NCBI GenBank assembly: GCA_964201665.1
Contig: CAXNEW010000001.1
Span: 2,623-66,622 of the forward strand
DNA: 64,000 nt
DNA from: Bdellovibrionota bacterium
Lineage (GTDB): Bacteria > Bdellovibrionota > UBA2428
Direction: 5' to 3'
In this document: positions 15,605-46,267 of the stretch, piece after piece
How the letters are laid out: the number at the start of each line of letters is the position of its first letter
How positions within the stretch are numbered: position 1 is the first letter of the stretch
Translations under genes and position numbers: made by a program
The notes under the pieces: model-generated
What the model was told of the DNA's origin: nothing
Database searches by the model: none
What the model saw: only the letters and a program-made list of their open reading frames with translations

Positions 15605-16426
15605 TCAGTCCAGCAGTCCTAGGGTTGCAATAAACTGGAGCAGAAAACCTGAAGTTTTGTCGGCAACTAAAGACCCGTTTTGAGCAGAACCCGACGTCGA
15701 GTAGAATTGAAGCAGTACTATCGGATAAAAGCGGTCCGCCGTTTCAGGCAGTGCCAATTGAAGGCCAGCTGCAACATAACTCAGGCCGCCACTTCCAGAG
15801 TTCGCACCATACATGTACTGATTATGGGCCTTACTGCCAAATCCTAGAGAAATAACAGCATTGGGTTCTAGAAGCGTTTGGGCCCAGGGTTCTCGATAAG
15901 AAAAAAGACGGGTTTTGGAAACCAGCTCAAAAAACTGGCCGTGATGAGTCGCGACATCTTGGGAAAAATTGAGGTCTAGTTCGGCTGCGTAAGTGCTTGT
16001 GTAGCTAGGCAAAAATAACTCCAAACTTGCGGCAAATTCATAGGTGTCTTGCCTCGAATTCGGCGCGCCCAATCGACTTACTTTCTTAGGAAACAAGGGA
16101 TCATCCGAGATTGCGACGATTCGCGCGCGAGCACGAATCGTTTTCTCGTAAATAAAATCTCGATACCCTACCGAGTCTCCAAGAAATTCAAAGCGATCAT
16201 CGAACAAGAAAATTCCCAAAACAGGGTCGAGTTGAAAATAGTCATACATCGTTGCGCCACGTTTCGTAAGTACGGACGAATATCTGGTGCCAAGATTGAT
16301 ACTACTTAGGATACCCAAATTCCATGGCCCTTCTTTTTGTGAAGGCGACGCTACGATCGGCTCTTCTGCAAACGATTGAATTGAAAATGCCAAAGTGAAA
16401 ACAGTTAAAATATATTGATACTTCAT
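15605..16426 (-). CDS. MipA/OmpV-family outer-membrane protein
   Basis: Signal peptide ..AFSIQSFAEE, beta-strand-rich composition, and ..HNQYMYGA.. comparable to the MipA ..N.YYYGV.. motif. Confidence 0.5.
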   Translation of the reverse strand: MKYQYILTVFTLAFSIQSFAEEPIVASPSQKEGPWNLGILSSINLGTRYSSVLTKRGATMYDYFQLDPVLGIFLFDDRFEFLGDSVGYRDFIYEKTIRARARIVAISDDPLFPKKVSRLGAPNSRQDTYEFAASLELFLPSYTSTYAAELDLNFSQDVATHHGQFFELVSKTRLFSYREPWAQTLLEPNAVISLGFGSKAHNQYMYGANSGSGGLSYVAAGLQLALPETADRFYPIVLLQFYSTSGSAQNGSLVADKTSGFLLQFIATLGLLD

Positions 16427-16435
16427 GGTCAGCTC

Positions 16436-18031
16436 CTACGACGCTATTGTTAAATTTTTATTTTTTTTGAAATGGAGTTTGATGTCGGCAGCGAGATCTC
16501 TCAGTCTCTTCTTTTTAGACGCAATCCCTTTTAAACGAACTCGTTCACCTGTTTGAAAGAGGAGATTCCATTGATAGAATAGGGTTTTGTACGCCGAAAT
16601 TAGAGAGTTGGTGGCATCCCAAATGTGAGTCATCTCAGATCCAGAGCCATTGATTTCTATAACTACAAAATTTTTCCCAATCTTCAGATCGTCAAGAGAA
16701 CGTGCTCGGACGTCGATGCGTCCGAAGTAAAAGTTAGGGATTTCATGGGCCAGTAGATCTATAGAGTGTAGGATCTGGTCAGTAATAAGGTCTTGGCCAT
16801 CCCAAAAAATAGCTCCTTGGCAATGATTGCCCGAAAGACCCAGAGGCACACGCTCACCAGACGATGGAACCCGGTCTAATTCTTTTTCAAATCTTGCAAA
16901 GTAGGTGGCCGCAATGATTCGAGCCCGTTTGTCTTTGAGAATCAGGGCGCCTAATTTGGTTTTCCCATCGCCTACAACAAAAGGAAATTCTTTGCGCGTG
17001 AGCGAAGGAATTGTCCCCGCTACTTGTTCGGGAAATCGGTGGTAAAAAATTCCGACTTCTACATTCCAATCGCTATATTCTTGGGCAATGACTTTGGTCT
17101 TGATTTGGGAGAGGTACGCACGAGCTTCGTCTTCATTGGGAATCAGTCTAACTCCGTATCCTCTTTGTCCGACGTCCGGTTTAAAAATGATCGGGTATTG
17201 CAATCCCGAATTGGCCAAAAGGCTTTGCCAATCTGATTCTGCATCAATCGGAACTGCCTTCAGTGCCCATGGACTTGTGGAGTTAACAAATTTCAAATAG
17301 TCCCATTTCGACTCGCCAATCAGCCCTCCATTTCTGAGGTCCGGATTTGCGTCGAGAGGAACACTAAAACTTCGATATTTAAAAGCTAGATAAGGGATAT
17401 AAAACACAACCGGAAGATAAAAGAGCCAGGCGGGCCAAAACTCGAAATGAGTCCACCTTCTCCAGCTGTAAAGAAGAGCTTTGCGCCTCCAGGGGTCGGC
17501 GAGTTGGGGCAGCATTTGCCTAACAACAAAAATTGAGGAAGCAGAGACCACGAGCAAGCTCCAAAGTGGGCCCGTCCAAAGCTCGGCGATTCCCTGGACC
17601 AAACTGAAGGCAAATGCAACCCAAACGAAGACACTAGCGAGGGTGACGAGGACAAAACGCTTCAGCGAGTAACCGAAATAGCCTGCGGCGAGGTAGAGGG
17701 GTAGCCTTGAACCTGGGACTGCTCGCGAAACGACCATGAGAATATCAGCGCGTTTTGAATCTCGAATTTGCTGCCTCAATGTTTCAAGACGGGGCCAGGT
17801 CTTTTTGTGTAACTTTCGAGCCAGTGCCCCAATCAAATAAAGGCCAATATCGCCTAAAACGATTCCGCAAAAAGTGGCCAAAAAAGCCTTCACAAAACTC
17901 AAGTTTGAACTTTTTACCAGAGCGATACCCATAACCAGAGCCGCATCTTCGAGAACAAAGGTGGTCAAGAAGAGAGAAATGACATGCCAAGCTTCTGACA
18001 GGCCGAAAAAATTTTGGAACAACTCAGACAA
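16436..18031 (-). CDS. Fusion protein: N-terminal DedA/VTT (SNARE-associated) membrane domain plus C-terminal ATP-grasp ligase domain
   Basis: The N-terminus has ..LGDIGLYLIG...VSRAVPGSRLPLYLAAGYFGYSLKRF.. (DedA signature). The C-terminus has ..IIFKPDVGQRGYGVRLI...VIAQEY...GRIDVR...VVIEINGSGSE.. (ATP-grasp strands). The apparent start is TTG, so the start is uncertain. Confidence 0.6.
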   Translation of the reverse strand: MSELFQNFFGLSEAWHVISLFLTTFVLEDAALVMGIALVKSSNLSFVKAFLATFCGIVLGDIGLYLIGALARKLHKKTWPRLETLRQQIRDSKRADILMVVSRAVPGSRLPLYLAAGYFGYSLKRFVLVTLASVFVWVAFAFSLVQGIAELWTGPLWSLLVVSASSIFVVRQMLPQLADPWRRKALLYSWRRWTHFEFWPAWLFYLPVVFYIPYLAFKYRSFSVPLDANPDLRNGGLIGESKWDYLKFVNSTSPWALKAVPIDAESDWQSLLANSGLQYPIIFKPDVGQRGYGVRLIPNEDEARAYLSQIKTKVIAQEYSDWNVEVGIFYHRFPEQVAGTIPSLTRKEFPFVVGDGKTKLGALILKDKRARIIAATYFARFEKELDRVPSSGERVPLGLSGNHCQGAIFWDGQDLITDQILHSIDLLAHEIPNFYFGRIDVRARSLDDLKIGKNFVVIEINGSGSEMTHIWDATNSLISAYKTLFYQWNLLFQTGERVRLKGIASKKKRLRDLAADIKLHFKKNKNLTIAS

Positions 18032-18191
18032 AAAAATTTCCCCACGTCATCGCCGTTCTGAGTGACGGGTAAGGGTACTTTCTTACAACAATAAAATTGG
18101 CCTCAAATTTTTTTGTAAGATTTAGTGACCTCACCACACTCATTCACCGGGAAACCTCTGAATTAAGTTCGAACGATTAAAGGAGATTGAA

Positions 18192-18662
18192 ATGGGAAAA
18201 AAGTGGACTCACGTTTTTTTAGGATTTTTTATGGCTGCTACAGCGCAGGCAGGAAATTTATTGAATACCGACAAGTCTGGAGTGGCTTTGTCTAACTACG
18301 ACGCAGTTTCGTATTTCAAGGGGGAGGCCCCGCAAAAGGGTAGCTCTCAATTCCAAACAACCCACGAAGGAGCCGTTTACTTTTTTGCAAATGAAGTAAA
18401 CAAGCAGACCTTCTTGAAGGCGCCAGAAAAATTTCTTCCACAATTTGGCGGTTGGTGCGCCTATGCTGTAGCAGATTCGAAATCAAAAGTTGAAGTCGAT
18501 CCAAAAAGTTTTTTGATTCAAGATGGACGCCTATTGCTTTTTTATAACGGATTTTTTGGGAATACTCGTAAAAAGTGGCAGGAAACCAAAGGCAAAGATG
18601 CCGCAAGTTTTCTAAAGGAAGCCGACGCTAACTGGCCTGAAGTGAAAAACAAAGACTCCTAA
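18192..18662 (+). CDS. Secreted YHS-domain (seleno)protein-family homologue (Cys form)
   Basis: ..LSNYDAVSYFKG....G......HEGAVYFFANEVNKQTFLKAPEKFLPQFGGWCAYAV.. matches the family pattern GYD.V.Y...G..Y.F......F...P..Y.PQ.GG.C. Confidence 0.55.
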   Translation: MGKKWTHVFLGFFMAATAQAGNLLNTDKSGVALSNYDAVSYFKGEAPQKGSSQFQTTHEGAVYFFANEVNKQTFLKAPEKFLPQFGGWCAYAVADSKSKVEVDPKSFLIQDGRLLLFYNGFFGNTRKKWQETKGKDAASFLKEADANWPEVKNKDS

Positions 18663-18664
18663 AT

Positions 18665-19075
18665 ATGAAAAATAAAATTCTGTTCCTTCTTAGGTTGCTC
18701 TCAGCTGGCATTCTTCTTCAGACGCTTTTCTTTAAGTTTTCGGGAGCGAAAGAATCTATATTTATTTTTTCTAGTCTGGGTGCTGAGCCTTGGGGACGAT
18801 GGATTTCTGGTGGCTTTGAACTTGTGGCGAGTATTTTGCTTTTGCTCCCGTCAACTCAAGCCTTGGGGGCACTTCTCGCGGCTGGAGTGATGGCGGGTGC
18901 AATTCTGAGTCACATTCTAATCCTTGGAGTTGTCGTAGAGAACGATGGAGGACTGCTCTTTGGACTGGCCCTTGTTGTCTTTTCGTCGTCTTTGATTGTT
19001 TTATACGATCAGCGAAACTCGCTGTTCGTTTTGCTCGACAATCTAAGACGAAAGAGGCGTGGGGAGTATTCCTAG
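18665..19075 (+). CDS. DoxX-family membrane protein
   Basis: A 136-aa protein with four predicted TM helices and a ..RLLSAGILLQTLFFKF.. opening typical of DoxX. Only 2 nt separate it from the upstream stop. Confidence 0.55.
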   Translation: MKNKILFLLRLLSAGILLQTLFFKFSGAKESIFIFSSLGAEPWGRWISGGFELVASILLLLPSTQALGALLAAGVMAGAILSHILILGVVVENDGGLLFGLALVVFSSSLIVLYDQRNSLFVLLDNLRRKRRGEYS

Positions 19076-19089
19076 GAAAGCTGCGAAAT

Positions 19090-20730
19090 ATGGCGGTCGA
19101 CACAAATCTTGCTTTCCGAAACTACGACCGAAAAGTTCTGTATTCATGTCCTGCCTTTGAAGTTGTTCAATGCGAATGGAAAAAAAACAGCAGCTCGCCG
19201 ATGCACAATCATGGCTCAAGCGACTGCTATGTGCTTGTCGAAGAGGGGCTGTTCGAAGAATCGGTTCGAAGCGGCTTAGAGATTTCAACGTCTTTTCGGA
19301 AATCAGGCCAGGTTATTCACACACCCCCTTTTTCAAGCCACGATCTCATCTGCAAATCTGATTACGCTCGCACGGTGCACGTTTATGTTCCGCCGCTTTC
19401 TAAAGACCAGCTTGGGAACAGGTTTTCCAGTCCAGATCAGAGTGAGAAGCTAAACTTTTTCGAACCGCTTTCAAGGCCGGGAATATCCAGAGATGCGTTT
19501 AGCTCACTTCTAGATGAAGTGCGGAATCAGTCCGTTTCGGTTCACTCGGAATACTTCATGAATCAGCTTTTCTCTGGCCTTCTTCCGGAGTCGATCGCTG
19601 TGAGCCGCATTGTAGCTTCGACCAAGGCGACATTGGCGACGCGCGAAGCGAGTCCCGTATTTTCCCTTGCTGAAAATGAGGTTGTCTTTGCACTTAGTCA
19701 GGCACTTGGCTGGGATCCAAGAAAATCAAACGGACTGGCAGTTCCCGGCGGTAGCGCTGCCAACTTCATGGGCCTTCATTGTGCTCGCCAGCGAGTTTTG
19801 CCCTCTGCTCGCGATGAGGGAAATCAAGGCCATAGGTTTAGAGTTTTTGTTTCAGAAGAATCCCACTATTCCTGGAAAAAAGGCTGTCTAGCTCTAGGTT
19901 TCGGTTTGAATGCCGCGATTCCGATTCGCGCAGATGCTCGAGGTCGCCTGATTCCAGAACAACTCCAGGTAGAATTAACTAAGAGTCGTTTGCGTGGAGA
20001 AGTTCCTTTGTTAGTCGGTGCAACCGCCGGAACAACAGTGACCGGAGCCTTCGATCCCATCCGGGAAATGCACAGCGTGTGTCGGGACCAGGATGTGTGG
20101 TTGCACGTCGATGCGGCCTGGGGTGGACCTGCAATTTTTTCGAACTCCGCAAAACATCTCATGAACGGCGTGGAATTGGCTGATTCTTTGAGTTTTGATG
20201 CACATAAACTTTTGGGAGCCTCTCTAACCTCAAGTATTTTTATTACCCAACATAAACATATTCTATTGGAAGCAAACGACGTCGCAGCTACATACCTGTT
20301 TCACGACAATGAAGACTTCGGGGACCGAGGAAGGTTGTCTTGGCAATGTGGGCGACCGGCGGATGCATTTGCGTTTTGGTCGATATGGAAACGCTATGGC
20401 AGTGATGGGTTTGGGAGGTTTATTGATCGGCAAATGGATTTGCAGAAGTCGTTTGTTCAACTTCTTAAGGAAAGTGGGCCGCGAATCAAGCTACTGCACG
20501 AACCAGAGTTCTTGAACGTGTGCGTTCAGGTGCTTCCGCCTGAAGATCAACAAGACGTTGCAAGTTGGTCGCGCCATGTTCGTCAATCTCTATTGGAGTC
20601 CAACCAGGCTATGATCAATTTTTCGGTGAATCCTCAAGGAGTGTCGTTTCTGAGATTTATTCTTGCTCATCCACACCTCGAAATTGTTCAACTTAGAAAA
20701 ATAGTTCAATGGGCACTCGAGGTTCAATAG
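19090..20730 (+). CDS. Fusion: cysteine-dioxygenase-like cupin (residues ~1-105) plus group II PLP-dependent decarboxylase (GAD/CSAD-like)
   Basis: The N-terminal PMHNHGSSDCYVLVEEGLFEE, ..SSHDL.. and ..TVHVYVPP parallel rat CDO SIHDHTDSHCFLKLLQGNLKE, GLHRVEN and SLHLYSPP. The C-terminal part has ..VPGGSAANFMGLHCARQ.. and the PLP-lysine motif SFDAHKLLGA. Confidence 0.65.
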   Translation: MAVDTNLAFRNYDRKVLYSCPAFEVVQCEWKKNSSSPMHNHGSSDCYVLVEEGLFEESVRSGLEISTSFRKSGQVIHTPPFSSHDLICKSDYARTVHVYVPPLSKDQLGNRFSSPDQSEKLNFFEPLSRPGISRDAFSSLLDEVRNQSVSVHSEYFMNQLFSGLLPESIAVSRIVASTKATLATREASPVFSLAENEVVFALSQALGWDPRKSNGLAVPGGSAANFMGLHCARQRVLPSARDEGNQGHRFRVFVSEESHYSWKKGCLALGFGLNAAIPIRADARGRLIPEQLQVELTKSRLRGEVPLLVGATAGTTVTGAFDPIREMHSVCRDQDVWLHVDAAWGGPAIFSNSAKHLMNGVELADSLSFDAHKLLGASLTSSIFITQHKHILLEANDVAATYLFHDNEDFGDRGRLSWQCGRPADAFAFWSIWKRYGSDGFGRFIDRQMDLQKSFVQLLKESGPRIKLLHEPEFLNVCVQVLPPEDQQDVASWSRHVRQSLLESNQAMINFSVNPQGVSFLRFILAHPHLEIVQLRKIVQWALEVQ

Positions 20731-20731
20731 A

Positions 20732-21577
20732 TTGCAAACTTTAAGATTTTTTTTGATAATTTTTGTTCTTAGTCTGAGTGCCTGTGAGGATCCCACACTT
20801 GCAATACGAGCCGATATTGCGGCTTTCAAAACGGAGACGCCTGATAGTTTTTATTTTACACACTCTGGCGGACGTAAAGTCCGAGCTGCATGGGCTGGGC
20901 TACCGACGCTTCGTCCGTTGATTTTTGTGCACGGATCTCCTGGATCATGGCAGGGATGGGCTGCCTTTCTGAGAAACAAAGAACTTCAAAATCGGTTTCA
21001 CATCATAGCCGTGGACCGACTGGGATACGGAGGATCAGGAGCAGGTCAAGCTGAACCAGCCCTGGAGTCTCAGGCAAATGCTATTTCACAATTTCTCCAA
21101 GAGAACAAAAGTGGCCTAGGAGCTGTTGTGGTTGGACATTCTCTAGGCGGCCCAGTTGCTGCCCGAATTGCAATGGATTTTCCCACGCAAGTCGCTGCCC
21201 TTGTACTTTTAGCGAGTTCGGTCGATCCTGCTCTCGAAGAAACCAAATGGTTCCAAATTCCCGCGCAGTGGCTCCTTTTAAAGTGGATGATTCCAAAAGA
21301 TTTGAAGGTTTGTAACAAGGAGATTCTTGGTCTTAAAGATCAGCTTCGCGAAATGACTCCAAGTTGGCAAAACCTAAACATACCCATTGCCATTGTACAT
21401 GGAGATAGAGATGATTTGGTTCCGGTTGAGAATGTCGATTTCCTAAAACTTCATTTAAAAAAGAATGCACTTGTGAGTGTCGAAATCATCCAGGGAATGA
21501 ATCATTTTATCCCATGGCGAAACATGGAATCTGTTTTGAACGCAATCCGAGTCGTGTCCAACAAAGTCACCCTCTAG
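20732..21577 (+). CDS. Alpha/beta-hydrolase lipoprotein
   Basis: TTG start 1 nt after the upstream stop. Lipobox LSLSAC. ..FVHGSPGSW.. and the nucleophile elbow GHSLGG are present. Confidence 0.6.
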   Translation: MQTLRFFLIIFVLSLSACEDPTLAIRADIAAFKTETPDSFYFTHSGGRKVRAAWAGLPTLRPLIFVHGSPGSWQGWAAFLRNKELQNRFHIIAVDRLGYGGSGAGQAEPALESQANAISQFLQENKSGLGAVVVGHSLGGPVAARIAMDFPTQVAALVLLASSVDPALEETKWFQIPAQWLLLKWMIPKDLKVCNKEILGLKDQLREMTPSWQNLNIPIAIVHGDRDDLVPVENVDFLKLHLKKNALVSVEIIQGMNHFIPWRNMESVLNAIRVVSNKVTL

Positions 21578-21599
21578 TGTAGTGATTCATACATTAGCC

Positions 21600-21920
21600 T
21601 TAAGGCAGAGTTGTTTTAGAATGCTCATTGAGGAGGCGTTTGTTGAGTTTGAGAAGCGTGTCCTCGCCAAGTTTTTTAACTTTTATCTGAGTTGCCTCTT
21701 TATTGAGCCAGGTACTGTACCCCTGATAGTTTCGACAGGCTTGGCACAAGCTCATGTGGAGTGAATGACGAATTTTCTGTTTCGGGGTTTTAACAGAGTC
21801 CCCCATGTTGATCCGCTCCGCTACTTCTTGGCAGCGCATAGCAAAATTGACCATCGTCCTCGATGCGAGAGCATAATAGCTGTCGTGCCAGATTTTTCTC
21901 AGTCTTTGAATAATCGTCAC
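21600..21920 (-). CDS. Anti-sigma factor (zf-HC2 type, no TM segment)
   Basis: H-x3-C-x2-C motif (HMSLCQAC). It lies immediately downstream of the ECF sigma gene. Confidence 0.5.
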   Translation of the reverse strand: MTIIQRLRKIWHDSYYALASRTMVNFAMRCQEVAERINMGDSVKTPKQKIRHSLHMSLCQACRNYQGYSTWLNKEATQIKVKKLGEDTLLKLNKRLLNEHSKTTLP

Positions 21921-21922
21921 GA

Positions 21923-22525
21923 CTAATAGCCTTCTAAATTAATATTCCCCTCTAAGCACCGGCGAAGTTTTTCTTTGGCGCGAAAGAGCAACACTCCAAG
22001 GTTAGTGACGCTCACTCCTAGAATATTACAAATGGATGCCGATTCTAAGTCATCGACCTCTTTTAGAATAAAAGCTTCTTTTTGATTCGAGCTTAGCCCT
22101 TCCAGGCAGTTTTTAATTGCTGTCCCGGTCTGTTTTCTGCTCAGCAATCGAGAAGGATCAGGAGGTTCTCGCTTCCACCATCCTTCGGGGGTGAAACTAT
22201 GGCTCATCACGGTCTCGGGATCTTCTTCGGAAGTAGTACGAGCTTGGGACCTGCGTTCTTCACGAATTTTGTTGATTAGAATTCCCCCTAGAAAAGTTTT
22301 AACTTCGGATCGACCCTCGAAAGACTCGATATTTTCAAAGAAGGTCGCCCAAGTTTGGCAGACAATTTCCTCAGCGTGCTCGCCAAAGACGCGACGAGAT
22401 CCGGCCATTTTCAAAAGGTAGGGATTCAGGTTACAAAAAAGTTCAGCGAGAAAATGAGGGTCACGATCTCGTAGGGATTTTAAGACGGCTTCATCGAGTT
22501 GAATCAATGGACCTCCGACATCCAC
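21923..22525 (-). CDS. ECF-type RNA polymerase sigma-70 factor
   Basis: Region 2 (..AEEIVCQTWATFFE..) and region 4 HTH (..QKEAFILKEVDDLESASICNILGVSVTNLGVLLFRAKEKLR..). Confidence 0.8.
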   Translation of the reverse strand: MDVGGPLIQLDEAVLKSLRDRDPHFLAELFCNLNPYLLKMAGSRRVFGEHAEEIVCQTWATFFENIESFEGRSEVKTFLGGILINKIREERRSQARTTSEEDPETVMSHSFTPEGWWKREPPDPSRLLSRKQTGTAIKNCLEGLSSNQKEAFILKEVDDLESASICNILGVSVTNLGVLLFRAKEKLRRCLEGNINLEGY

Positions 22526-22599
22526 TTGAATTAGTTTTTTTTGACCGTTTGTTCAATAATGAAATTGCACACTAACCTTATCTGTGCTCCAATGACGCA

Positions 22600-23223
22600 A
22601 TGGGGCGGCCTCCAAAGTTTGATCGTGAAACGATTTTAGATTCGGCTATGCGATGTTTTTGGCAACGCGGGTATGCCCAGACGAGCGTCGATGATCTTGT
22701 CAGGGCGACGGGCCTAAAGCGAGGTAGCCTTTATTTTCACTTTACCGATAAAAAGACTCTCTTTCTGGCAGTTCTCGAGCACTACAAGCAAACTGTTGTG
22801 CTCGGGCGACGCTCACATGTTGATTCCGCGCCGAACGCTAGGACGGGAATCGAGAATTTTTTTGTCGAAACCTTGCTCTCCGTGGAAGGCGCCAGTTTCT
22901 ATTGGGGCTGCCTCAACACCAATACGGCAACCCAGCTTGGAGAGGTCTCGGAGAAAGAGATTTTAACATGGATCAGGAACGGAATTATAGCTTGGGAAAA
23001 GTATTGGGAAACTGTTGTTAGTCGCGGAATTCAGGATGGAAGTATTTACACAAAGAGTGCACCTAAAGATGTTGCAATTGCGTTAGTGGCGCTCACGCAA
23101 GGCTCTAACGTCATATTGAAAAGCTTGAACAGTCCTGTAGCCTCTCGACGCGCCATTAAGATCATTCTCGAGGGAATTTTGGGGGAATCCCGTAATAAAG
23201 CGCTCGATTTGTACACTGACTAA
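22600..23223 (+). CDS. TetR/AcrR-family transcriptional regulator
   Basis: N-terminal HTH ..FWQRGYAQTSVDDLVRATGLKRGSLYFHFTDKKTLF.. Confidence 0.8.
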   Translation: MGRPPKFDRETILDSAMRCFWQRGYAQTSVDDLVRATGLKRGSLYFHFTDKKTLFLAVLEHYKQTVVLGRRSHVDSAPNARTGIENFFVETLLSVEGASFYWGCLNTNTATQLGEVSEKEILTWIRNGIIAWEKYWETVVSRGIQDGSIYTKSAPKDVAIALVALTQGSNVILKSLNSPVASRRAIKIILEGILGESRNKALDLYTD

Positions 23224-23230
23224 ATGAAAA

Positions 23231-23965
23231 ATGAGTATTTCCGAATTATTGGTGTCGGCGCTTGCAGGATTTCTTACAACGCTTTCTCCTTGCGTACTTC
23301 CGGTCTTGCCTCTGGTCATCGCTAGCTCGCTTCGAGCAGGACGCCGTGGTCCACTATTTTTTGTCGGAGGTCTTTTACTGACTTTTGTCGGCGTCACTTG
23401 GGCCCTATCTAGCTTCGGCAACATTCTTGGATTGGATCGCGGCCTCATTCGCAATATTTCAGCACTCACGCTGATCACAGCCGGAGTTCTGTTTCTGAGC
23501 GAAAAGGCTCAGGAACTCCTCTCTCAGGCTCTCGCACCCTTAGTGAACAAGCTGAACTATACGAGCCAAGTGGTCAGTATGCGGTCCTCAGTTTGGGAAA
23601 ACGGACGTCAGTTTATCCTGGGGGCCCTGGCCGGAATTATTTGGACCCCCTGCAGTGGCCCAAGCCTAGGAGTGGCGATTGGCCTCGCTTCAAATAAACA
23701 AAACAGCTTACAGGCTTTGCCAGTGCTCGCTATTTTTGGTCTTGGGGCGGCGCTGCCTCTTTTGGCTATTGCCTACGGATCTACTGCCTTTTCGCTGCGG
23801 CTTCGCCGGGGCTCGATGCGGTGGATGACGCTCATCAAGAAGACCGCAGGTATTTTAATCATCACTATTGGTCTCGCGATCCTTACGGGTCTGGATAAAA
23901 AAATTGAATCTCAACTTTTGCGGTGGTCACCCGAATGGCTCACCGATCTCACCACACGCTTTTAA
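23231..23965 (+). CDS. ccdA: CcdA/DsbD-type transmembrane thiol-disulfide electron transporter
   Basis: ..[12 protein letters not shown].. and ..TPCSGPSLG.. are the two conserved Cys-containing TM motifs of the DsbD_2/CcdA family. Confidence 0.7.
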
Positions 23966-23981
23966 ACTTGGAGGAATTTTC

Positions 23982-25415
23982 ATGAATCTAAAATCTGCGG
24001 TCTTTGCTCTCGCCACTTTTTCAAGCACAGCCAGTGCTTACCCCGTTTTTGATCAAACGCAGTACGATGCTGCGCTAAAGGCGAATTCAAAAATTCTACT
24101 GCATTTTCATGCTGACTGGTGTCCCACCTGTGTCAAACAAGAAAAGGTTCTCAAAGGGCTGAGCGGCGATTCTTTGCTTAAGGGAGTAACCCTTTTCAAG
24201 GTAGATTACGACAATGCCGACGCTCTAAAAAAGACTTACAAAATCAACTCGCAATCAACGCTTGTGGCCCTCAACGGCGGTATCGAAAGTGGTCGCATTA
24301 TCAGCAAAACAAGCGAATCCGATTTGCGGGAATTTTTGAAGTCAGCTTTTTCTGAGAAAAAATTGAGCGATACCCTGGATGCACTATCGAAGGCATCGGT
24401 GAGTCGAGTTACTTCTGAGCAAAAGGCAATTATGGAAAAAGCCCTGCAGGATTTGCGTAAGTCAGACCTGCTAAAGAAGCTGCCCAAGGAGGGTGATAAG
24501 GCTCCGGATTTTACTCTGATGAACGTCCTCGGAAAAGAAATCAAACTCTCGACTCTGCTTCGACGTGGCCCCATCGTGTTGACGTTTTATCGCGGGGGTT
24601 GGTGCCCTTACTGTAATGCGCAATTGCGTGCTTACCAGGAAAAGTTGCCTGCATTTCGACAGCTCGGAGCCCAACTCGTGGCCATTTCGCCAGAAGTGCC
24701 GGAGGCAGGCCTCTCGACGGCCGAAAAAGATGATCTTAAGTTTCAAGTTCTAAGCGACCGCAACAATCAAGTGGCTAGGACCTACGGATTGGTCTTTAAG
24801 CTTTCACCCGATCAGCAGAAAACATACAAAGAATTTGGCGTGGACCTGGAGAAAAATCAAGGCAGCACAAATTGGGAACTACCGGTGCCAGCGACCTTCG
24901 TCATCGGTAAAGATCGCGTAATTCACTACGCCTTTGCGGAGGTCGACTACACGAAACGCGCAGAGCCTGAGGATATTTTGTCGGCTATAAAAAATAAAGA
25001 ACTAAAAACTCGATTGACCTCAGAGCAGTATCGAGTGACCCAAGAAGGGGCTACTGAAGCCCCCTTCAAGAACGCCTACTACAATAATAAAAAGCCGGGA
25101 ATTTATGTCGATGTCGTTTCGGGAGAACCCTTATTTAGCTCGCTCGATAAATTTGACTCGGGGACTGGCTGGCCAAGTTTTAGCAAGCCGATCGATGTCG
25201 ACCAAGTGAGCAAAAAAGAGGATCTCTCACTTGGGATGTCTCGAATCGAGGTCGAGTCCTCCAACGGAGCGCATTTAGGTCACGTTTTTAACGACGGTCC
25301 GAAAGATAAAGGCGGGCAACGTTACTGCATCAATTCGGCAGCCTTAAGGTTTATTCCGGTCGAAAACCTGTCTGCCGAAGGTTATGAAGAGTATGAAAAA
25401 TCTTTCACCAAATAG
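23982..25415 (+). CDS. Exported tri-domain protein: thioredoxin-like (WCPTC), AhpC/TSA redoxin-like (WCPYC) and methionine-R-sulfoxide reductase MsrB
   Basis: The start was moved to ATG 23982, which has GGAGG 8 nt upstream. Signal peptide [19 protein letters not shown]. The C-terminus has ..[11 protein letters not shown]...GHVFNDGP....[11 protein letters not shown] (MsrB). The MsrB zinc CxxC pairs are absent ([13 protein letters not shown]). Confidence 0.75.
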
Positions 25416-30340: not shown

Positions 30341-31840
30341 TTAACGGGCGAAAATCTCAACAGTCTCCACCCACCTGGGCAAACGACTTAAACCCCCAAG
30401 AGCATAAATTGCTGCCAGCACACACAGAGTTGTCGCCAAGGCCGTTGGCCAAAGCTTAGCCACGCGTTTGTTTTGAGGAATTTCGTCAGTGGGTTCATCC
30501 TGATTCATGTACAAAGGAACTAAAATTTTCAGATAGAAACCAAGACCAAGAAGTGTTCCTAAAATCAGTAAACCTGCTGAAAAGTATTCTTGCCCAATCC
30601 ACAGGTCTTTGAGAATTAAATATTTTCCAAAAAAACCGGGCAAAGGCGGGATACCTGCAATGGAGAAAACAAAAAATGCAAAAATTCCCACAAAAATACC
30701 CTGAAATTTTCGTCCAATTTGTGGAAGGTTCTCGATTTTCAAATCCCCATGGGGCTCAAGGCCCAATTGAGTTGAAAACCTTTCTAAAAGTGCAAAAATT
30801 CCAACTACGCTAACAGAGTAAATAAAAAGGTAAGCAAACATGGACCCTGTCGCAAAAGGTCCGGCCGCCAAAGCTAATGCTGCGAAACCCGCGTTCACAA
30901 TTCCAGAATAAGCAAAAAGGCGGCGCAAGCTTTTTTGGGCCATTGCAAGAAGGCTTCCCGCAACAATCGACAAACCCGCAAGTCCAATCAAAATCTGCTT
31001 AAGCTCAGGAAAATTTGAAAAACCGGTGAGCGTCCAAATGCCTGCCAGGGCTCCAAAAACAGAAATTTTTGTAGCCGTAGAAAGCATCGCTGCCATTGCA
31101 GTGGGCGATGCTTGGTAAACATCGGGTGCCCACATGTGCAAAGGAAACAAAGCGAGCTTAAAGGACAAACTCGAAATTATTAAAATTGCGGCCGAAAGGG
31201 CCATAAATTTTTCAGGGCCGCTGTTTACTGACTTTAAAGCAGAGGCAATGAGCTCAAAATCCAGAGTTCCCGTGAGACCGTAAAAGAGGGCTGCTCCCAT
31301 TAAAAAAAATCCCGAACCAAAGGCTCCGGTCAAAAGATATTTTAATCCGGCTTCAAGAGATTTTTCTCTGTCCGTGTCTAGGGATGCCATCACATAGCCA
31401 GTTATGGCGAGAGTTTCGAGATAAACAAAAAATGAAACCCAATCTCGGGCGCCAGGTAAAAGCGTAAGGCCCAAAACTTGAACAACCAAAATAGCTAGCC
31501 ATTCGGGATGCAACACGCCATTTCGCGTTGGGGTGACAAATGTTGATACCAATAACGCAAGAATCCCTACTGCGCAGCCCACGAGCCTAGTGAAGGCATT
31601 CATCTCTAGCGCTGTGCCCATAACAGCCACTGGAGGATTTCCAAGTTGAATCGCCAACAAACCCACAAAGGGAACAAAAACAAAAAAACTAAGTACCCGT
31701 GTAAACCCAATCCCTAAACGAAAGCCCGCAGCTAAAGTCGAAAAAACCAAACCTACACAAAGCCAAAGAAGCGGAAAAAGAGCCTGAAGCTCATTTGGGC
31801 CCAGGGTAAAAACAGAGGAATCAAAAAAACTACTTTCCAT
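30341..31840 (-). CDS. nuoN: NADH-quinone oxidoreductase subunit N (cluster 1)
   Basis: ..LFPLHMWAPDVYQASPTAMAAMLSTATK.. and its position after nuoM. Confidence 0.8.
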   Translation of the reverse strand: MESSFFDSSVFTLGPNELQALFPLLWLCVGLVFSTLAAGFRLGIGFTRVLSFFVFVPFVGLLAIQLGNPPVAVMGTALEMNAFTRLVGCAVGILALLVSTFVTPTRNGVLHPEWLAILVVQVLGLTLLPGARDWVSFFVYLETLAITGYVMASLDTDREKSLEAGLKYLLTGAFGSGFFLMGAALFYGLTGTLDFELIASALKSVNSGPEKFMALSAAILIISSLSFKLALFPLHMWAPDVYQASPTAMAAMLSTATKISVFGALAGIWTLTGFSNFPELKQILIGLAGLSIVAGSLLAMAQKSLRRLFAYSGIVNAGFAALALAAGPFATGSMFAYLFIYSVSVVGIFALLERFSTQLGLEPHGDLKIENLPQIGRKFQGIFVGIFAFFVFSIAGIPPLPGFFGKYLILKDLWIGQEYFSAGLLILGTLLGLGFYLKILVPLYMNQDEPTDEIPQNKRVAKLWPTALATTLCVLAAIYALGGLSRLPRWVETVEIFAR

Positions 31841-31843
31841 TTT

Positions 31844-33343
31844 TCACCTAAAATAAGTTAGAACCTGCGTAGCCGCAGGTTCTACTTTCGAAAGAATTGC
31901 CTGAGAACCAAAACCTAAATAGATCATAAATAAAAGTAGAGGAACTAAACTTGCCCATTCGTTCCAAGTCACTCTAACTGGATGAGATTTCACAAGTTCA
32001 GAAACAGGTCCATAGGCAAACCGTCTGAGCATTCCCAGCATATAAATAGCTCCAAGCAAAACTCCCGACAGCGCAACCAGCGAATAAACAGGAAATGTTT
32101 TGAAACTACCTGCGAGAATTAAAAACTCTCCTACAAAACCCGGCAACCCTGGAAGACCAATCGAGGCCATTGAAGCTAAAATAAAACTTGTGGCAAGCCA
32201 TGCATGCTCTTGGGCAAAGCCTCCATATTTTGAAATTTCTCTTGAGTGAGTACGCTCATAAATAATTCCGAAAATCAAAAACAGAGCGCCTGTACTTAAA
32301 CCGTGGGCAATATTTTGAAAAAAGGCCCCCTGTAAGGCTTCGACGCCAAGAGCAAAGAGTCCCAAAACCATAAAGCCCAAGTGCGAAACCGAAGAATAAG
32401 CGATCATTTTTTTAATGTCAGTTTGGAACCAGGCCGCGAAAGCGCCCATCACGATTCCCACACAACCTAATGCCATGAGTGTCGGAGCCGCTGCTGCGCT
32501 TGCCTCTGGAAATAGCGGTAGGCACCAACGAGCAATTCCGTAAACTCCTAACTTCAACAAAACTCCAGCCAAAATCACTGAGGCCCCGGTTGGCGCTTCA
32601 GTGTGGGCATCAGGCAACCAAGTATGAAAAGGCCAAACGGGAATTTTAACAACAAATGCGAGCATAAAACCTAAAAACAAAAGGCCTTGAACCGAGCCCC
32701 ATCCTTGAAATTCAAAATTTGTTGCAACAAGATCGTGCCACCCTAAACTTGCAACATCAAACTGGAATGCCAAAGCTAAAATAGCTGCAAGCATGAAAAG
32801 TGATCCCGCCATAGTAAATGCAAAAAATTTTAAGGAAGCATAAACTCGATTTTTAGACCCCCACCCCCCAATTAAGAGATACATCGGGATGAGCATAAAC
32901 TCCCAAAAACAATAAAAAACAAAGGCGTCTGCGGCGAGTAAGGACCCAACCGAGGCTCCATTTAAAATCGAAAAAAGTCCTAAATATCCTGGACCCAAAT
33001 TCTTTTTGTTTAGTGAAAAAAACCCCAAACAAAGACTCAAAAGAACATTGAGACCCAGAAGGGGAATATTGAGCCCATCTAAACCAAGCGAAAACCGACT
33101 CTTAAGAAATGGAATCCAGTCCCAAGAAAAATATACCGGAAATGCCCGTGGCCCGCCGCCATCCCCTGCAACACTGAGCTCCTCCCAAATGGGGCCAATT
33201 GCCCAAACGAAAAGGAGTACCCAAACAATCTGAAACACCAGACTTGAGTACTGCGCAAGCAATGGGATTTTTTTGGGAAACAAAAACAACAAAAGCCCCG
33301 TTACAAAGGGCCACAACAAAAACAAAAGCAATGAATTTTCCAT
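31844..33343 (-). CDS. nuoM: NADH-quinone oxidoreductase subunit M (cluster 1)
   Basis: ..VWPFHTWLPDAHTEAPTGASVILAGVLLKLGVYG.. Confidence 0.85.
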   Translation of the reverse strand: MENSLLLFLLWPFVTGLLLFLFPKKIPLLAQYSSLVFQIVWVLLFVWAIGPIWEELSVAGDGGGPRAFPVYFSWDWIPFLKSRFSLGLDGLNIPLLGLNVLLSLCLGFFSLNKKNLGPGYLGLFSILNGASVGSLLAADAFVFYCFWEFMLIPMYLLIGGWGSKNRVYASLKFFAFTMAGSLFMLAAILALAFQFDVASLGWHDLVATNFEFQGWGSVQGLLFLGFMLAFVVKIPVWPFHTWLPDAHTEAPTGASVILAGVLLKLGVYGIARWCLPLFPEASAAAAPTLMALGCVGIVMGAFAAWFQTDIKKMIAYSSVSHLGFMVLGLFALGVEALQGAFFQNIAHGLSTGALFLIFGIIYERTHSREISKYGGFAQEHAWLATSFILASMASIGLPGLPGFVGEFLILAGSFKTFPVYSLVALSGVLLGAIYMLGMLRRFAYGPVSELVKSHPVRVTWNEWASLVPLLLFMIYLGFGSQAILSKVEPAATQVLTYFR

Positions 33344-33344
33344 T

Positions 33345-35276: not shown

Positions 35277-35286
35277 TTTTAATTCC

Positions 35287-35607
35287 CTAACCCTTCAAAG
35301 ATCTCAAATCGTCGAGCGAGACTGTTCCCACTTTTCTAAAGATTGCAACAAATAGACCCAACGCCACGGCAGCCTCGGCCGCTGCAACTAAGACAATAAA
35401 AAGAACTAAGGACGCTCCCTCAGGATTTCGGTGCAGATTTGAAAAACTCACTAAGCACAAATTCACCCCGTTGAGCATGAGCTCCAAACACATGAGGGCA
35501 ATCAAGCCCGACCTTCGAATCAAAAAGCCCGATACCCCAATACAAAAAAGTAGGACCCCGATTCCAACATGAAACTGCGTTACAGATAATCCAGAAAACA
35601 ATTCCAT
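35287..35607 (-). CDS. nuoK: NADH-quinone oxidoreductase subunit K (cluster 1)
   Basis: ..LELMLNGVNLCLVSF.. and ..AAAEAAVALGL.. ATG 35607 is preferred over TTG 35625. Confidence 0.8.
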   Translation of the reverse strand: MELFSGLSVTQFHVGIGVLLFCIGVSGFLIRRSGLIALMCLELMLNGVNLCLVSFSNLHRNPEGASLVLFIVLVAAAEAAVALGLFVAIFRKVGTVSLDDLRSLKG

Positions 35608-35611
35608 TTTT

Positions 35612-36157
35612 TTACTTACCTTCAACCTGATCCAATTGTTTTTTGGGCTTCCCTAAAACCACAACTCCCATAACGGTTGCAAAAATCAGAAGGCCCGCCA
35701 CCTGAAAGGGTAAATGATACTTCGAAAGAAACTGCAAAGAGATCACCGACGGAGAGGCAATAGAAGCAAGCGACTCAACCTCCGCCGCGCCCTGATTTCC
35801 AAAAGAACTTCTAAACGCGGCCACGCTTAAGCCCAAACCTAAAAATAAGCTTACAAAAACTCCTCCCGCAATTGAAACTGCCCGCCCGGGAAGAGTCAAA
35901 GAAAGCGGCTTAAGATCTAGCAACATGACAATAAAAACAAACAAAACCGCTATGGCGCCGGCATAAATAAGAATTTGAATGGCTCCCATAAAAAAATGAC
36001 CAAGCCCTATATAAAGAGCCCCCGTCAGAAAAAGAGTTGCCATCAAATTCACCGCACTCACAACCGGATTTTTCGAAAGCACTACAGAAAGAGCCGTAAC
36101 CAAGGTCAAAAAACCTAAAACAATTTGCACCACGTTTGGGCTGCCAACGGATTCCAT
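35612..36157 (-). CDS. nuoJ: NADH-quinone oxidoreductase subunit J (cluster 1)
   Basis: Its position between nuoH and nuoK. ..QILIYAGAIAVLFVFIVML.. is typical of NuoJ/ND6. Confidence 0.75.
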   Translation of the reverse strand: MESVGSPNVVQIVLGFLTLVTALSVVLSKNPVVSAVNLMATLFLTGALYIGLGHFFMGAIQILIYAGAIAVLFVFIVMLLDLKPLSLTLPGRAVSIAGGVFVSLFLGLGLSVAAFRSSFGNQGAAEVESLASIASPSVISLQFLSKYHLPFQVAGLLIFATVMGVVVLGKPKKQLDQVEGK

Positions 36158-37240: not shown

Positions 37241-37242
37241 TT

Positions 37243-39137: not shown

Positions 39138-39138
39138 T

Positions 39139-39693: not shown

Positions 39694-39705
39694 AAAAAAA
39701 TTCTC

Positions 39706-40092: not shown

Positions 40093-40101
40093 TTATCACC
40101 T

Positions 40102-41631: not shown

Positions 41632-41690
41632 TGTTATAGTCCTTCCTTCATTTCTACCGTCATCTTACTGGACCCATTTACTTCACCCAT

Positions 41691-45391: not shown

Positions 45392-45392
45392 T

Positions 45393-45722: not shown

Positions 45723-45740
45723 TTCTAACTCACCCTTGCC

Positions 45741-46265: not shown

Positions 46266-46267
46266 GG

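Follow-up and report, generated by a model that had tools for sequence, protein, structure and literature searches.

In the animal taurine pathway, the enzymes CDO1 and CSAD (with its paralogue GADL1) perform, as two proteins of about 200 and 490 aa, the same two chemistries, in the same order, as those considered here for one bacterial chain of 546 aa, whose cysteine dioxygenase (CDO) part comprises only about 100 aa. Linked but separate CDO and CSAD genes were reportedly described in bacteria by Agnello et al. in 2013, namely in Synechococcus sp. PCC 7335, marine cyanobacteria and flavobacteria. These pairs reportedly represent a prokaryotic route from cysteine via cysteine sulfinate to hypotaurine that is encoded by separate genes, whereas the gene analysed here is a single one, belongs to Bdellovibrionota and, unlike the pairs, is embedded in a YHS-DoxX/ECF-ZAS gene cluster. 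CDO and CSAD catalyse consecutive pathway steps and are encoded by separate genes in some bacteria (PMC8153620, PMC12585060); a search of the literature for a CDO–decarboxylase fusion found no precedent.

For the surrounding genes, the closest described systems are regulons of the response to HOCl and oxidative stress, which combine an ECF sigma factor and a small cytoplasmic anti-sigma factor with periplasmic Trx-Msr and CcdA/DsbD genes and with a DoxX cluster that includes a periplasmic partner (PMC7907618). A membrane oxidoreductase complex of Mycobacterium tuberculosis, DoxX-SseA-SodA, acts in thiol homeostasis under oxidative stress (PMC7907618).

The window analysed here is a stretch of 64,000 nucleotides from a Bdellovibrionota bacterium, in which a single ORF (19090–20730, + strand) encodes the 546-aa fusion protein. 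Such a fusion is carried by a family of relatives of Bdellovibrio (predatory bacteria), inside a conserved oxidative-stress gene cluster. The first-pass annotation proposed a cysteine-to-hypotaurine route on one polypeptide, and this reading is supported by the CDO profile and the CSAD/GADL1 similarity, from which the activity is predicted. We favour it, with somewhat better than even confidence: the protein would be a natural two-domain enzyme converting cysteine to cysteine sulfinate and then to hypotaurine, which are the opening two reactions on the way from cysteine to taurine.

The two domains of the fusion protein

Residues 1–105 (19090–19404, + strand) form a minimal CDO-like cupin domain, with the cupin at about residues 9–104 and the barrel at 13–100. 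CDO features had been claimed for residues ~35–105 (an HxH-x4-C motif, a later His and the crosslink Tyr), and all of them are present: HNHGSSDC with H39 (codon 19204–19206), H41 (19210–19212) and C46 (19225–19227), SSHDL with H84 (19339–19341), and TVHVYVPP with T95, H97 and Y99 (19384–19386), all codons being on the + strand. In a family-profile alignment these motifs match, without gaps, HDHT(N/D)SHC, LHRVEN and SLHLYSPP of mammalian CDO1. A further element, absent from the first-pass annotation, is Y12-D-R14 (R14 codon 19129–19131, + strand), which aligns to Tyr58/Arg60 of CDO. All CDO catalytic positions are kept (Y12/R14, H39/H41/H84, C46 and T95-H97-Y99), so that the metal ligands, Arg60/Tyr58, Cys93 and the Ser-His-Tyr triad of animal CDO1 all have equivalents. 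Among 40 members of the fusion family, sharing 44–76% identity, R14, H39, H41, H84, H97 and Y99 do not vary, and C46 and T95 are retained in at least 90% of the proteins; judged from these sequences, the conservation of the catalytic positions far exceeds chance. The roles of the Arg-type signature and of the SHY-type triad in thiol dioxygenases have been described, the Arg-type Y-x-R being the true-CDO signature that grips the cysteine alpha-carboxylate, while Gln-type enzymes take 3-mercaptopropionate (PMC8050391).

The only Pfam match of the N-terminal domain is CDO_I (E-value 0.0075, 16.3 bits); the window protein thus scores 16–17 bits, below the 23-bit cutoff of that family. CDO_I was matched by 27 of 36 fusion-family members, and PCO_ADO was not among the families matched by their N-terminal domains. 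A profile of the N-domain family compared with PDB sequences aligned the CDO metal ligands and matched the CDOs of B. subtilis (4.8e-10) and mammals (CDO1, 1.3e-5); the best 12 PDB matches are all CDOs, and ergothioneine dioxygenase is also among the profile or fold matches. When proteins matched by this profile beyond the fusion family were sampled, nine of nine scored above the CDO_I cutoff, as did stand-alone proteins of ~100–120 aa with the same signature. The AlphaFold model of the domain is all-beta (pLDDT 88.9), with cysteine-bound B. subtilis CDO as the best Foldseek match (4qm9, E-value 4.6e-9, TM 0.79). The B. subtilis enzyme (YubC; 3eqe, 4qm8, 4qm9), likewise Arg-type and the best match in both profile and fold, shares the Y-x-R, HxH, H and HxYxPP positions, but it is an unfused protein of 161 aa that has a helical segment at its N-terminus and carries Gly at the Cys93 position, where at least 90% of the fusion proteins have Cys. 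The fusion domain spans only positions 69–162 of the 170 in the CDO_I profile and lacks both the helical region of ~55 residues with which canonical CDOs begin and the strands at their C-terminus. On these sequence grounds it is probably a minimal Arg-type thiol dioxygenase.

An inter-domain linker (residues 106–149; 19405–19536, + strand) has a pLDDT of 65–86, below the rest of the model, and varies in sequence and length among family members; alignments of GADL1 and CSAD to the fusion start at about residue 114. The remainder, residues 150–546 (19537–20730, + strand), is a group II PLP decarboxylase and falls in the CSAD/GADL1/GAD clade. The earlier assignment of the last ~440 aa to a GAD/CSAD-type decarboxylase with the PLP lysine in SFDAHKLLGA holds: Pfam Pyridoxal_deC covers residues 150–480 (1.9e-62), and this lysine, K373, is invariant across the fusion family, as are the other key residues F161, T181, A183, H259, Y402 and R522. 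PDB sequence matches rank GADL1 (1.9e-74), CSAD (2.4e-73) and GAD67 (9e-70) before a diaminobutyrate-type enzyme (1e-45), and Foldseek retrieved CSAD 6zek (4.2e-40). Animal CSAD/GADL1 are thus the closest relatives in both sequence and fold, with an identity of ~31% to CSAD. Clustering with decarboxylases of non-sulfinate specificity was not seen: GADL1 and CSAD score 251–255 bits, against ~154–160 for diaminobutyrate-type, 105–107 for tryptophan and aromatic-amino-acid and at most 92 for tyrosine and histidine decarboxylases. By these scores the domain is closest to CSAD/GADL1, far above the diaminobutyrate, histidine and tyrosine enzymes.

F161 is the equivalent of CSAD Phe94, a residue that keeps Glu out and has a specific importance for the binding of CSA (bioRxiv 10.1101/2020.09.25.308866); the equivalents of CSAD His191, Lys305, Tyr335 and Arg466 are also invariant. 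At the three CSAD selectivity positions the fusion has F/T/A versus F/S/Y in CSAD, and we count two of the three as CSAD-like. The Phe is the CSAD state and Thr181 replaces Ser, but the match does not extend to Ala183, which stands in place of Tyr. With Thr and Ala at the second and third positions, the acid-binding pocket therefore differs from that of CSAD.

Proposed route to hypotaurine and its alternatives

In the proposed mechanism, H39, H41 and H84 would hold Fe(II) in the cupin, where L-cysteine would bind via its thiolate and amine, its carboxylate being gripped by R14 and Y12. Insertion of O2, aided by the outer-sphere T95-H97-Y99 triad and possibly by a C46-Y99 crosslink, would yield cysteine sulfinate. 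The PLP domain could then decarboxylate it to hypotaurine, with K373 forming the Schiff base, H259 stacked on PLP, Y402 as the proton donor on the catalytic loop, R522 also in the site, and F161 excluding the longer glutamate. Coupling of the domains might prevent loss of the reactive sulfinate through transamination and sulfite release, and would fix the two activities at 1:1 stoichiometry.

The most serious alternative, to which we assign roughly one chance in seven, is that the decarboxylase works chiefly as an aspartate 1-decarboxylase of the PanP/GADL1 type producing beta-alanine, with the cupin as a separate or auxiliary module and no hypotaurine pathway. Asp is a substrate of GADL1, the best PDB match, and a weak one of CSAD (bioRxiv 10.1101/2020.09.25.308866); the second-best equivalog-type match is NCBIfam PanP, although its 146.5 bits are far under the cutoff of 606. 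Besides the third selectivity position, which is unlike CSAD, this alternative draws on relatives of the fusion: three unfused proteins (L027, L029, L031) and one with a decayed N-terminal domain (L026) have exactly the same decarboxylase residues. Since they retain the pocket, the decarboxylase is evidently useful without a fused active dioxygenase, and its substrate could therefore be aspartate or another acid. Against this, invariant CDO catalytic residues in a domain fused to this enzyme would be difficult to account for with two unrelated activities, and Phe161 represents the CSAD state, important for CSA binding, where GADL1 has Tyr.

Two further alternatives appear less probable than this one, and about equally so. 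The cupin could be a non-catalytic sensor, binding metal or cysteine and exerting allosteric control over the decarboxylase, as its truncation relative to canonical CDOs, its score under the Pfam cutoff and its decay in L026, where the decarboxylase was retained, might suggest; mere binding, however, requires neither the triad nor the crosslink-position Cys, both conserved along with the ligands, and the stand-alone proteins sharing the signature pass the CDO_I cutoff. Alternatively, the dioxygenase could take another thiol (homocysteine, D-cysteine, selenocysteine, mercaptosuccinate or 3-mercaptopropionate) and the decarboxylase its sulfinate. The substrates of thiol dioxygenases are diverse, ergothioneine dioxygenase is one of the matches, Ala183 in place of a bulky Tyr may enlarge the decarboxylase pocket, and the neighbouring YHS family includes selenoproteins. 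However, the invariant Y-x-R is of the true-CDO type and 3-mercaptopropionate goes with Gln-type enzymes, the CSAD equivalent of F161 blocks glutamate-length substrates, and a PLP decarboxylase requires an alpha-amino acid as its substrate, so that the products of 3-mercaptopropionate and mercaptosuccinate are excluded.

The reverse order, in which the decarboxylase converts cysteine to cysteamine and the cupin acts as a cysteamine dioxygenase, would give the same end product, and such a dioxygenase route is known from animals. We regard it as very unlikely, since the cupin matches CDO_I rather than PCO_ADO, the carboxylate-binding R14 would have no role with cysteamine, and the decarboxylase belongs to an acidic-amino-acid clade. 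An artefact of assembly or gene calling, of negligible probability, was ruled out: the exact ORF is present on three contigs, among them one of Logan run ERR5863105, which was assembled separately, ~98% of the query is covered by more than 120 protein clusters, mostly from Bdellovibrionota, the isolate Bdellovibrio sp. qaytius carries the fusion in its complete genome, and the single-chain model of the full protein is confident (pTM 0.86).

Conserved gene neighbourhood

As the first-pass annotation had described, four tightly packed genes lie on the + strand with intergenic gaps of 2, 14 and 1 nt: YHS (18192–18662, 156 aa), DoxX (18665–19075, 136 aa), the fusion and an alpha/beta hydrolase (20732–21577, 281 aa, TTG start). 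Independent gene calling in a second assembly yielded four identical products. The first gene, preceded by a strong AAGGAG ribosome-binding site, does encode a YHS-(seleno)protein homologue (NCBIfam NF041384, YHS_seleno_dom, 111.8 bits versus a cutoff of 70), with a signal-peptide-like N-terminus suggesting export; its GGWC cysteine is kept in 26 of 26 homologous matches across loci, none of which has Sec. YHS precedes both DoxX and the fusion in 20 loci. The DoxX call stands marginally (Pfam DoxX, 25.3 bits versus 23.6). Of 29 loci whose fusion has an intact CDO signature, 25 have DoxX as the gene immediately before the fusion, versus none of four loci in which the protein is unfused or its CDO domain decayed (Fisher p = 0.0017), and DoxX and YHS adjacency thus tracks the intact fusions. 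The hydrolase is indeed lipoprotein-like (Abhydrolase_1 1.9e-22, an LSAC lipobox-like motif and a GHSLGG nucleophile elbow), but its membership of the operon is not conserved: homologues are nearby in ~8 loci, and only the window and locus L033 have one directly downstream, so it is a loosely associated neighbour and no stable cluster member.

The conserved cluster consists of YHS, DoxX, the fusion and a divergent DedA/VTT–ATP-grasp gene, with an ECF sigma factor and a ZAS anti-sigma factor beside them; the first-pass annotation mentioned neither the DedA/VTT–ATP-grasp gene nor the sigma/anti-sigma pair. The DedA/VTT–ATP-grasp gene (16436–18031, − strand, 531 aa; Pfam VTT_dom 1.4e-10, RimK 1.1e-4) is the most consistently linked neighbour, upstream in 22 loci; its product belongs to an uncharacterised family of ~525 aa, whose profile weakly matches glutathione synthase and RimK-type ATP-grasp proteins. 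Many of the contigs listed for this family agree in length with contigs listed for the fusion. The ECF-type sigma factor (21923–22525, − strand; Sigma70_r4_2 1.9e-11, Sigma70_r2 1.3e-5) adjoins the cluster in 18 loci. It is always paired with a putative cytoplasmic anti-sigma factor (21600–21920, − strand, 106 aa), whose ZAS motif, C30...H55-x3-C59-x2-C62, is kept in 18 of 18 loci; since a Pfam search gave no match, the motif and the pairing are the basis of this assignment.

Further genes on the + strand encode a TetR regulator (22600–23223; TetR_N 2.5e-16), a DsbD/CcdA-type membrane thiol-disulfide transporter (23231–23965; DsbD_TM 2.2e-10) and an exported thioredoxin–peroxiredoxin–MsrB fusion (23868–25415; SelR 1.7e-45, AhpC-TSA 5.6e-37, Thioredoxin 2e-11), the true start of which is probably an internal Met before a signal-like stretch of 13 residues. 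By analogy, the cluster resembles the HOCl-responsive SigE regulon of Neisseria meningitidis and the RpoE2-HrsE regulon of Haemophilus influenzae, which have the same ECF, Trx-Msr and DoxX elements, and the ECF pair may regulate the operon. Unlike the fusion neighbourhood, those regulons contain no CDO or decarboxylase, and their DoxX partners are DUF proteins, not YHS. The M. tuberculosis complex likewise joins a membrane DoxX to sulfur/thiol-handling partners, but these are a sulfurtransferase and a superoxide dismutase, with no sequence relationship beyond the DoxX domain.

The fusion would be co-transcribed with the exported YHS Cys-protein and the DoxX membrane protein, and hypotaurine could serve as a sacrificial antioxidant, as the outlet of a cysteine-detoxification route, or both. 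Because the YHS/DoxX operon, the ECF/ZAS pair and the periplasmic Trx-Prx-MsrB/DsbD genes adjoin, hypotaurine would most likely be made in a response to oxidant or thiol stress.

On the other side of the cluster, a 273-aa exported protein of no known family (15605–16426, − strand; no Pfam match) is an occasional member, its homologues adjoining the decarboxylase or the hydrolase in six loci. A comparison of promoters across loci found no motif common to the operon and the ECF sigma gene. The divergent promoter region upstream of YHS contains an inverted repeat, CTTACAA-N24-TTGTAAG (18082–18119, + strand), and 17 of 22 loci have a TTACAA in the 200 nt preceding YHS, versus ~0.07 expected.

The fusion gene and its N-terminal domain

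The first-pass annotation described four tightly packed genes on the forward strand, and all four were recovered at the positions it gave: a YHS-family gene (18192–18662), a DoxX gene (18665–19075), the fusion gene (19090–20730), and an alpha/beta hydrolase gene (20732–21577), separated by intergenic gaps of 2, 14, and 1 nt. When genes were called independently on a contig from a separate assembly, the same four products were obtained, and the ribosome-binding sites of the set are plausible. Promoter and terminator scans of positions 17800–22700 gave the same counts as in shuffled sequence, so the operon boundaries are based on gene spacing alone. The fusion gene is a single ORF of 546 aa, as originally read, and a check for an assembly artefact gave no support for one, the identical ORF being present on three contigs. 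Nearly all related loci are from Bdellovibrionota MAGs, and one completely sequenced isolate, Bdellovibrio sp. qaytius, contributes a locus as well. The fusion is genuine and spans the lineage, and an assembly or gene-calling artefact can be dismissed for practical purposes.

When residues 1–147 were scanned alone, the sole Pfam family matched was the cysteine dioxygenase (CDO) family CDO_I, with a score of 16.3 bits (16.3–17.2 across scans), which does not reach the gathering cutoff of 23 bits; the match spans only profile positions 69–162 of 170. Since the CDO part lies under the Pfam threshold, domain-architecture databases overlook the fusion. The protein is labelled "glutamate decarboxylase", "cupin", once sulfinoalanine decarboxylase, or a glutamate/tyrosine decarboxylase-like enzyme with a quercetin-dioxygenase-like cupin, and the CDO domain is recognised in none of the source annotations. 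Among PDB sequences, two entries of the Bacillus subtilis enzyme (BsCDO) were the only matches to residues 1–147.

Because the single-sequence CDO_I match was weak, a family profile was built. A homology search with the fusion protein returned 1093 relatives, the best 120 of which cover about 98% of the query at 45–76% identity; conservation was assessed on an alignment of 40 family members, and the N-domain profile comprised residues 1–112 of 36 sequences. Residues R14, F23, E24, W30, H39, H41, S44, G53, H84, C88, H97, Y99, and P101 are invariant in the 40 members, C46 and T95 are conserved in at least 90% of them, and Y12 is the family consensus. In a search of the PDB, the profile matched BsCDO (4.8e-10) and mammalian CDO1 (1.3e-5); the top 12 matches were all CDOs, followed by quercetinase at 2.5e-4. 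CDO_I was matched by 27 of the 36 family members, with a best value of 1.5e-6.

The CDO metal ligands proposed at first reading were borne out by the profile alignment, in which H39 and H41 fall on His86 and His88, and H84 on His140 (rat numbering). These three positions of the three-His iron site, all invariant in the 40 members, correspond by alignment to the ligands of the cupin barrel. Y12-x-R14 is aligned on CDO Tyr58/Arg60, matching YGR of BsCDO and YTR of CDO1, while C46 falls on Cys93 without a gap (HxH-x4-C spacing) and T95-H97-Y99, followed by P101, on the outer-sphere triad Ser153-His155-Tyr157. The T95 position is Ser in some members, and in the 150 closest CDO relatives Thr and Ser are equally common. 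In CDO, the bound cysteine is contacted by Arg60 and Tyr157, and it is at the Arg position that true CDOs differ from the Gln-type 3-mercaptopropionate dioxygenases (PMC8050391).

In a reverse check, an exhaustive search with the N-domain profile returned 1468 proteins, and the CDO_I cutoff was passed by all nine of those sampled from outside the fusion family. The AlphaFold model of the domain is a nine-strand all-beta barrel (pLDDT 88.9), and its best structural match is cysteine-bound BsCDO (E 4.6e-9, TM 0.79, 26% identity), generic small cupins ranking behind it. Canonical CDOs (160–200 aa) have a helical N-terminus of about 55 residues and C-terminal strands, both absent from the domain, which runs from Y12 to near residue 104; stand-alone proteins of 100–120 aa that share its reduced form and signature were also found. 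Judged from alignments and the model, the predicted identity of the N-terminal domain is that of a minimal cysteine dioxygenase.

In mammalian CDO, the Cys-Tyr crosslink cofactor is formed by C93 and Y157. The occurrence of C46 at the crosslink position was considered as a striking eukaryote-like trait and dropped, Cys being present in 47 of the 73 nearest CDO relatives. The profile search also brought up other CDO_I architectures. Several proteins of 600–920 aa (P0131, P0132, P0134, P0136–P0142, and others) carry three or four tandem CDO_I domains, with a CDO_I score of 362 bits over four stretches in P0131; P0167 is a fusion of CDO_I with a SAM methyltransferase, and P0191 and P0247 are fusions with an FAD/NAD(P)-binding oxidoreductase domain.

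The decarboxylase domain and its unfused relatives

Pfam Pyridoxal_deC covers residues 150–480 (1.9e-62), scoring 211.6 bits where the cutoff is 27. Among PDB sequences, the domain scored highest with GADL1 (254.6 bits), cysteine sulfinate decarboxylase (CSAD, 250.9 bits), and GAD67/65 (236–239 bits; GAD67 239 bits), followed by decarboxylases of the diaminobutyrate type (about 154–160 bits), the lysine enzyme DfoJ (131 bits), the tryptophan and aromatic enzymes (105–107 bits; AADC 105 bits), and those acting on tyrosine or histidine (at most 92 bits; histidine 72 bits). By these bit scores, the suggested GAD/CSAD type is upheld, and the diaminobutyrate, histidine, and tyrosine enzymes are more distant. 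A Foldseek search with the full-length model (pLDDT 87.6, pTM 0.86) gave the same order, and in NCBIfam the diaminobutyrate decarboxylase and PanP equivalogs both scored far under their cutoffs.

Roles have been described for the PLP lysine K305, PLP-stacking H191, catalytic-loop Y335, and R466 of CSAD, and Phe94 of the mouse enzyme keeps glutamate out and has a specific importance for the binding of cysteine sulfinate (bioRxiv 10.1101/2020.09.25.308866). Their counterparts in the fusion protein are H259 (His191), the PLP lysine K373 (Lys305), Y402 (Tyr335), and R522 (Arg466), all invariant, and by residue alignment F161 corresponds to Phe94. A three-residue selectivity motif, reportedly defined by Agnello et al. 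in 2013, reads F94/S114/Y116 in human CSAD, S/N/F in GAD, and Y/S/Y in GADL1; its positions are confirmed by alignments to CSAD and GADL1 and by the Phe94 data. At these positions, the proposed CSAD character holds exactly for F161 and conservatively for T181 (Ser in CSAD), but not for A183 (Tyr in CSAD), which is unlike every characterised enzyme of the CSAD/GAD/GADL1 comparison. The F161/T181/A183 combination is near-invariant in the family and in unfused relatives, with conservative substitutions in two loci. The predicted pocket is CSAD-like at the best-studied position and not identical to that of CSAD, and sequence and model comparisons identify the C-terminal domain as a predicted CSAD/GADL1-type decarboxylase.

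Unfused decarboxylases occur at four of the related loci, namely L027 (455 aa), L031 (492 aa), and, by match range, L028 and L029. The stand-alone enzymes of L027 (1404–2771) and L031 (5617–7095) have the same F/T/A pocket and neither a CDO domain nor YHS, DoxX, or ECF neighbours. At a further locus outside the YHS-DoxX cluster, L026 (8001–9629), the N-terminal extension is kept and the decarboxylase half is intact, but none of the residues R14, H39, H41, C46, H84, and Y99 is retained. A crude NJ tree of the decarboxylase domains, constructed without support values, places L026 inside the fused clade, which suggests that its N-terminal domain arose by secondary decay and is, by appearance, a natural pseudo-domain. 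The full F/T/A/H/K/Y/R set of decarboxylase residues is kept in L026, L027, L029, and L031, the four loci compared (L028 was outside this comparison); the decarboxylase can therefore be useful without the dioxygenase.

To survey the gene context of the family, the proteins of the window were compared with 42 loci by tblastn. DoxX is directly upstream of the fusion gene in 25 of the 29 intact-CDO fusion loci with upstream DNA and in none of the four unfused or decayed loci with enough upstream DNA (Fisher p = 0.0017), which are also free of YHS, VTT, and ECF neighbours. Thus, the YHS-DoxX cluster goes with a predicted-active dioxygenase domain.

Predicted function of the fusion protein

The best-supported reading of the sequence data, which we consider reasonably probable, is that of a bifunctional enzyme leading from cysteine via cysteine sulfinate to hypotaurine. 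In the cupin domain, L-cysteine would be oxidised to cysteine sulfinate in a reaction dependent on Fe(II) and O2, and the PLP domain would then decarboxylate the sulfinate to hypotaurine. Hypotaurine is well known to scavenge radicals and HOCl, and CDO to detoxify cysteine. The hypotaurine reading is not rated higher mainly because the decarboxylase can be useful without the dioxygenase domain.

Alternatively, the protein could be a decarboxylase converting aspartate to beta-alanine and carrying an unrelated cupin; with A183 departing from CSAD on one side, and F161 and the conserved CDO catalytic residues of the cupin on the other, we hold this to be unlikely. The chances are smaller still that the cupin is a non-catalytic sensor, its residues being replaced in L026 but T95-H97-Y99 and C46 being conserved in the family along with the ligands, and equally small that the dioxygenase acts on another thiol, R14 being of the CDO and not the Gln type. 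A reversed order of steps, via cysteamine, is very improbable beside a decarboxylase closest to GADL1 and CSAD.

Separate CDO and CSAD genes are known from animals and a few marine bacteria, cyanobacteria and flavobacteria (PMC8153620, PMC12585060). Literature searches found no report of a natural CDO-CSAD fusion and nothing relevant on CDO, or on the synthesis of hypotaurine or taurine, for organisms like Bdellovibrio; the preprint on the B. qaytius genome is silent on both subjects. Neither the chemistry nor the two domain families are new; what appears to be new is the single-chain architecture, the minimal CDO core, the distinct F/T/A decarboxylase pocket, and the conserved association with YHS, DoxX, the DedA–ATP-grasp protein, and the ECF/ZAS pair. 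If the hypotaurine reading is true, no other single-chain CDO-CSAD enzyme would be known from nature before this one, and bacterial hypotaurine/taurine synthesis, so far known only from a few marine cyanobacteria and flavobacteria with separate genes, would be extended to a whole predatory lineage. A CDO core of about 100 residues with all catalytic residues would likewise define a minimal thiol dioxygenase, and the fused enzyme is an obvious candidate for one-gene production of hypotaurine or taurine.

Gene neighbourhood and regulation

The YHS gene lies upstream of DoxX in 20 loci. Its product matches NCBIfam NF041384 with 111.8 bits against a curated cutoff of 70, and the conserved cysteine noted in its GGWC motif is always Cys in these loci. 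A homology search with the YHS protein gave matches almost all from the same narrow clade. Divergent second YHS paralogues (FNGFCAF or FGGFCGY) were seen a few kb from the cluster in L014 (3685–4059), L019 (3684–4085), and L024 (3919–4683), the last having two in tandem.

A divergently transcribed upstream gene (16436–18031, minus strand), present in 22 loci, encodes a DedA/VTT–ATP-grasp fusion of 531 aa belonging to an uncharacterised family of about 525 aa. A homology search with this protein found no named relatives, and its profile matched glutathione synthase, RimK, and cyanophycin synthetase weakly in the PDB. The first-pass inclusion of the alpha/beta hydrolase as an operon partner did not hold: the hydrolase is near in about eight loci and directly downstream only in the window and L033, and therefore is not a stable operon member. 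An exported 273-aa protein without a Pfam family (15605–16426, minus strand) has counterparts beside the decarboxylase or hydrolase in six related loci.

An ECF sigma factor gene (21923–22525, minus strand) and a small partner ORF (21600–21920, minus strand; 106 aa) adjoin the cluster in 18 loci, the small ORF always being beside the sigma gene. It carries C30...H55-x3-C59-x2-C62, the ZAS motif, in 18/18 loci, while a Pfam scan detected no anti-sigma or other domain in it. Its size and motif spacing recall those of RsrA; by motif and ECF adjacency, it is a putative zinc-binding anti-sigma factor. Downstream of the cluster are a TetR gene and, at 23231–25415 on the forward strand, genes for a DsbD/CcdA-type membrane protein and for an exported fusion of three domains, thioredoxin–peroxiredoxin–MsrB. 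As called mechanically, the ORF of the latter starts at 23868 and overlaps the preceding gene, and the true start is probably the internal Met in front of the signal-like sequence.

The arrangement in the window closely parallels the HOCl-responsive RpoE2/HrsE regulon of H. influenzae and the SigE regulon of N. meningitidis, each of which governs a Trx-Msr operon together with a DoxX cluster that has a periplasmic partner (PMC7907618). In a search across loci, no ECF promoter motif common to the upstream regions of the YHS operon and of the ECF gene was demonstrated, so the link of the ECF factor to the operon is drawn from conserved adjacency and analogy. The only enriched element was the hexamer TTACAA upstream of YHS, which 17 of 22 loci have where about 0.07 would be expected, and in the window the YHS gene is preceded by an inverted repeat, CTTACAA-N24-TTGTAAG (18082–18119, forward strand). 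Judged by gene context, it is probably under thiol or oxidant stress that the fusion comes into play.

One could further hypothesise that the DedA/VTT–ATP-grasp protein, YHS, DoxX, the fusion, and ECF/ZAS form one oxidant-induced, hypotaurine-based envelope antioxidant system, although we consider this reading unlikely. Thiol or HOCl stress would free the ECF sigma factor, and the fusion would then make hypotaurine from cysteine. The membrane-anchored ATP-grasp ligase could join the amine of hypotaurine or taurine to a carboxylate, either of an envelope or lipid-linked molecule or of glutamate, while the exported YHS Cys-protein and DoxX might form a redox couple linked to quinones, by which the sulfinate would be oxidised or recycled in the periplasm. 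Such a system in predatory bacteria, if it exists, would be a previously unknown one. The conserved link of the fusion to DoxX, a Cys/Sec-family YHS protein, and a putatively ZAS-controlled ECF sigma factor offers a testable way into two poorly understood protein families and bears on how predators digesting cysteine-rich prey handle thiol and oxidant stress.

Further along the window, positions 30341–47428 (minus strand) form a block of strong AT skew (up to 0.27) consisting of two tandem complex I (Nuo) gene sets, in the minus-strand order NuoL/M/N-like, NuoH, NuoF, then NuoL/M/N-like and NuoH again; the skew is attributable to membrane-protein codon bias.
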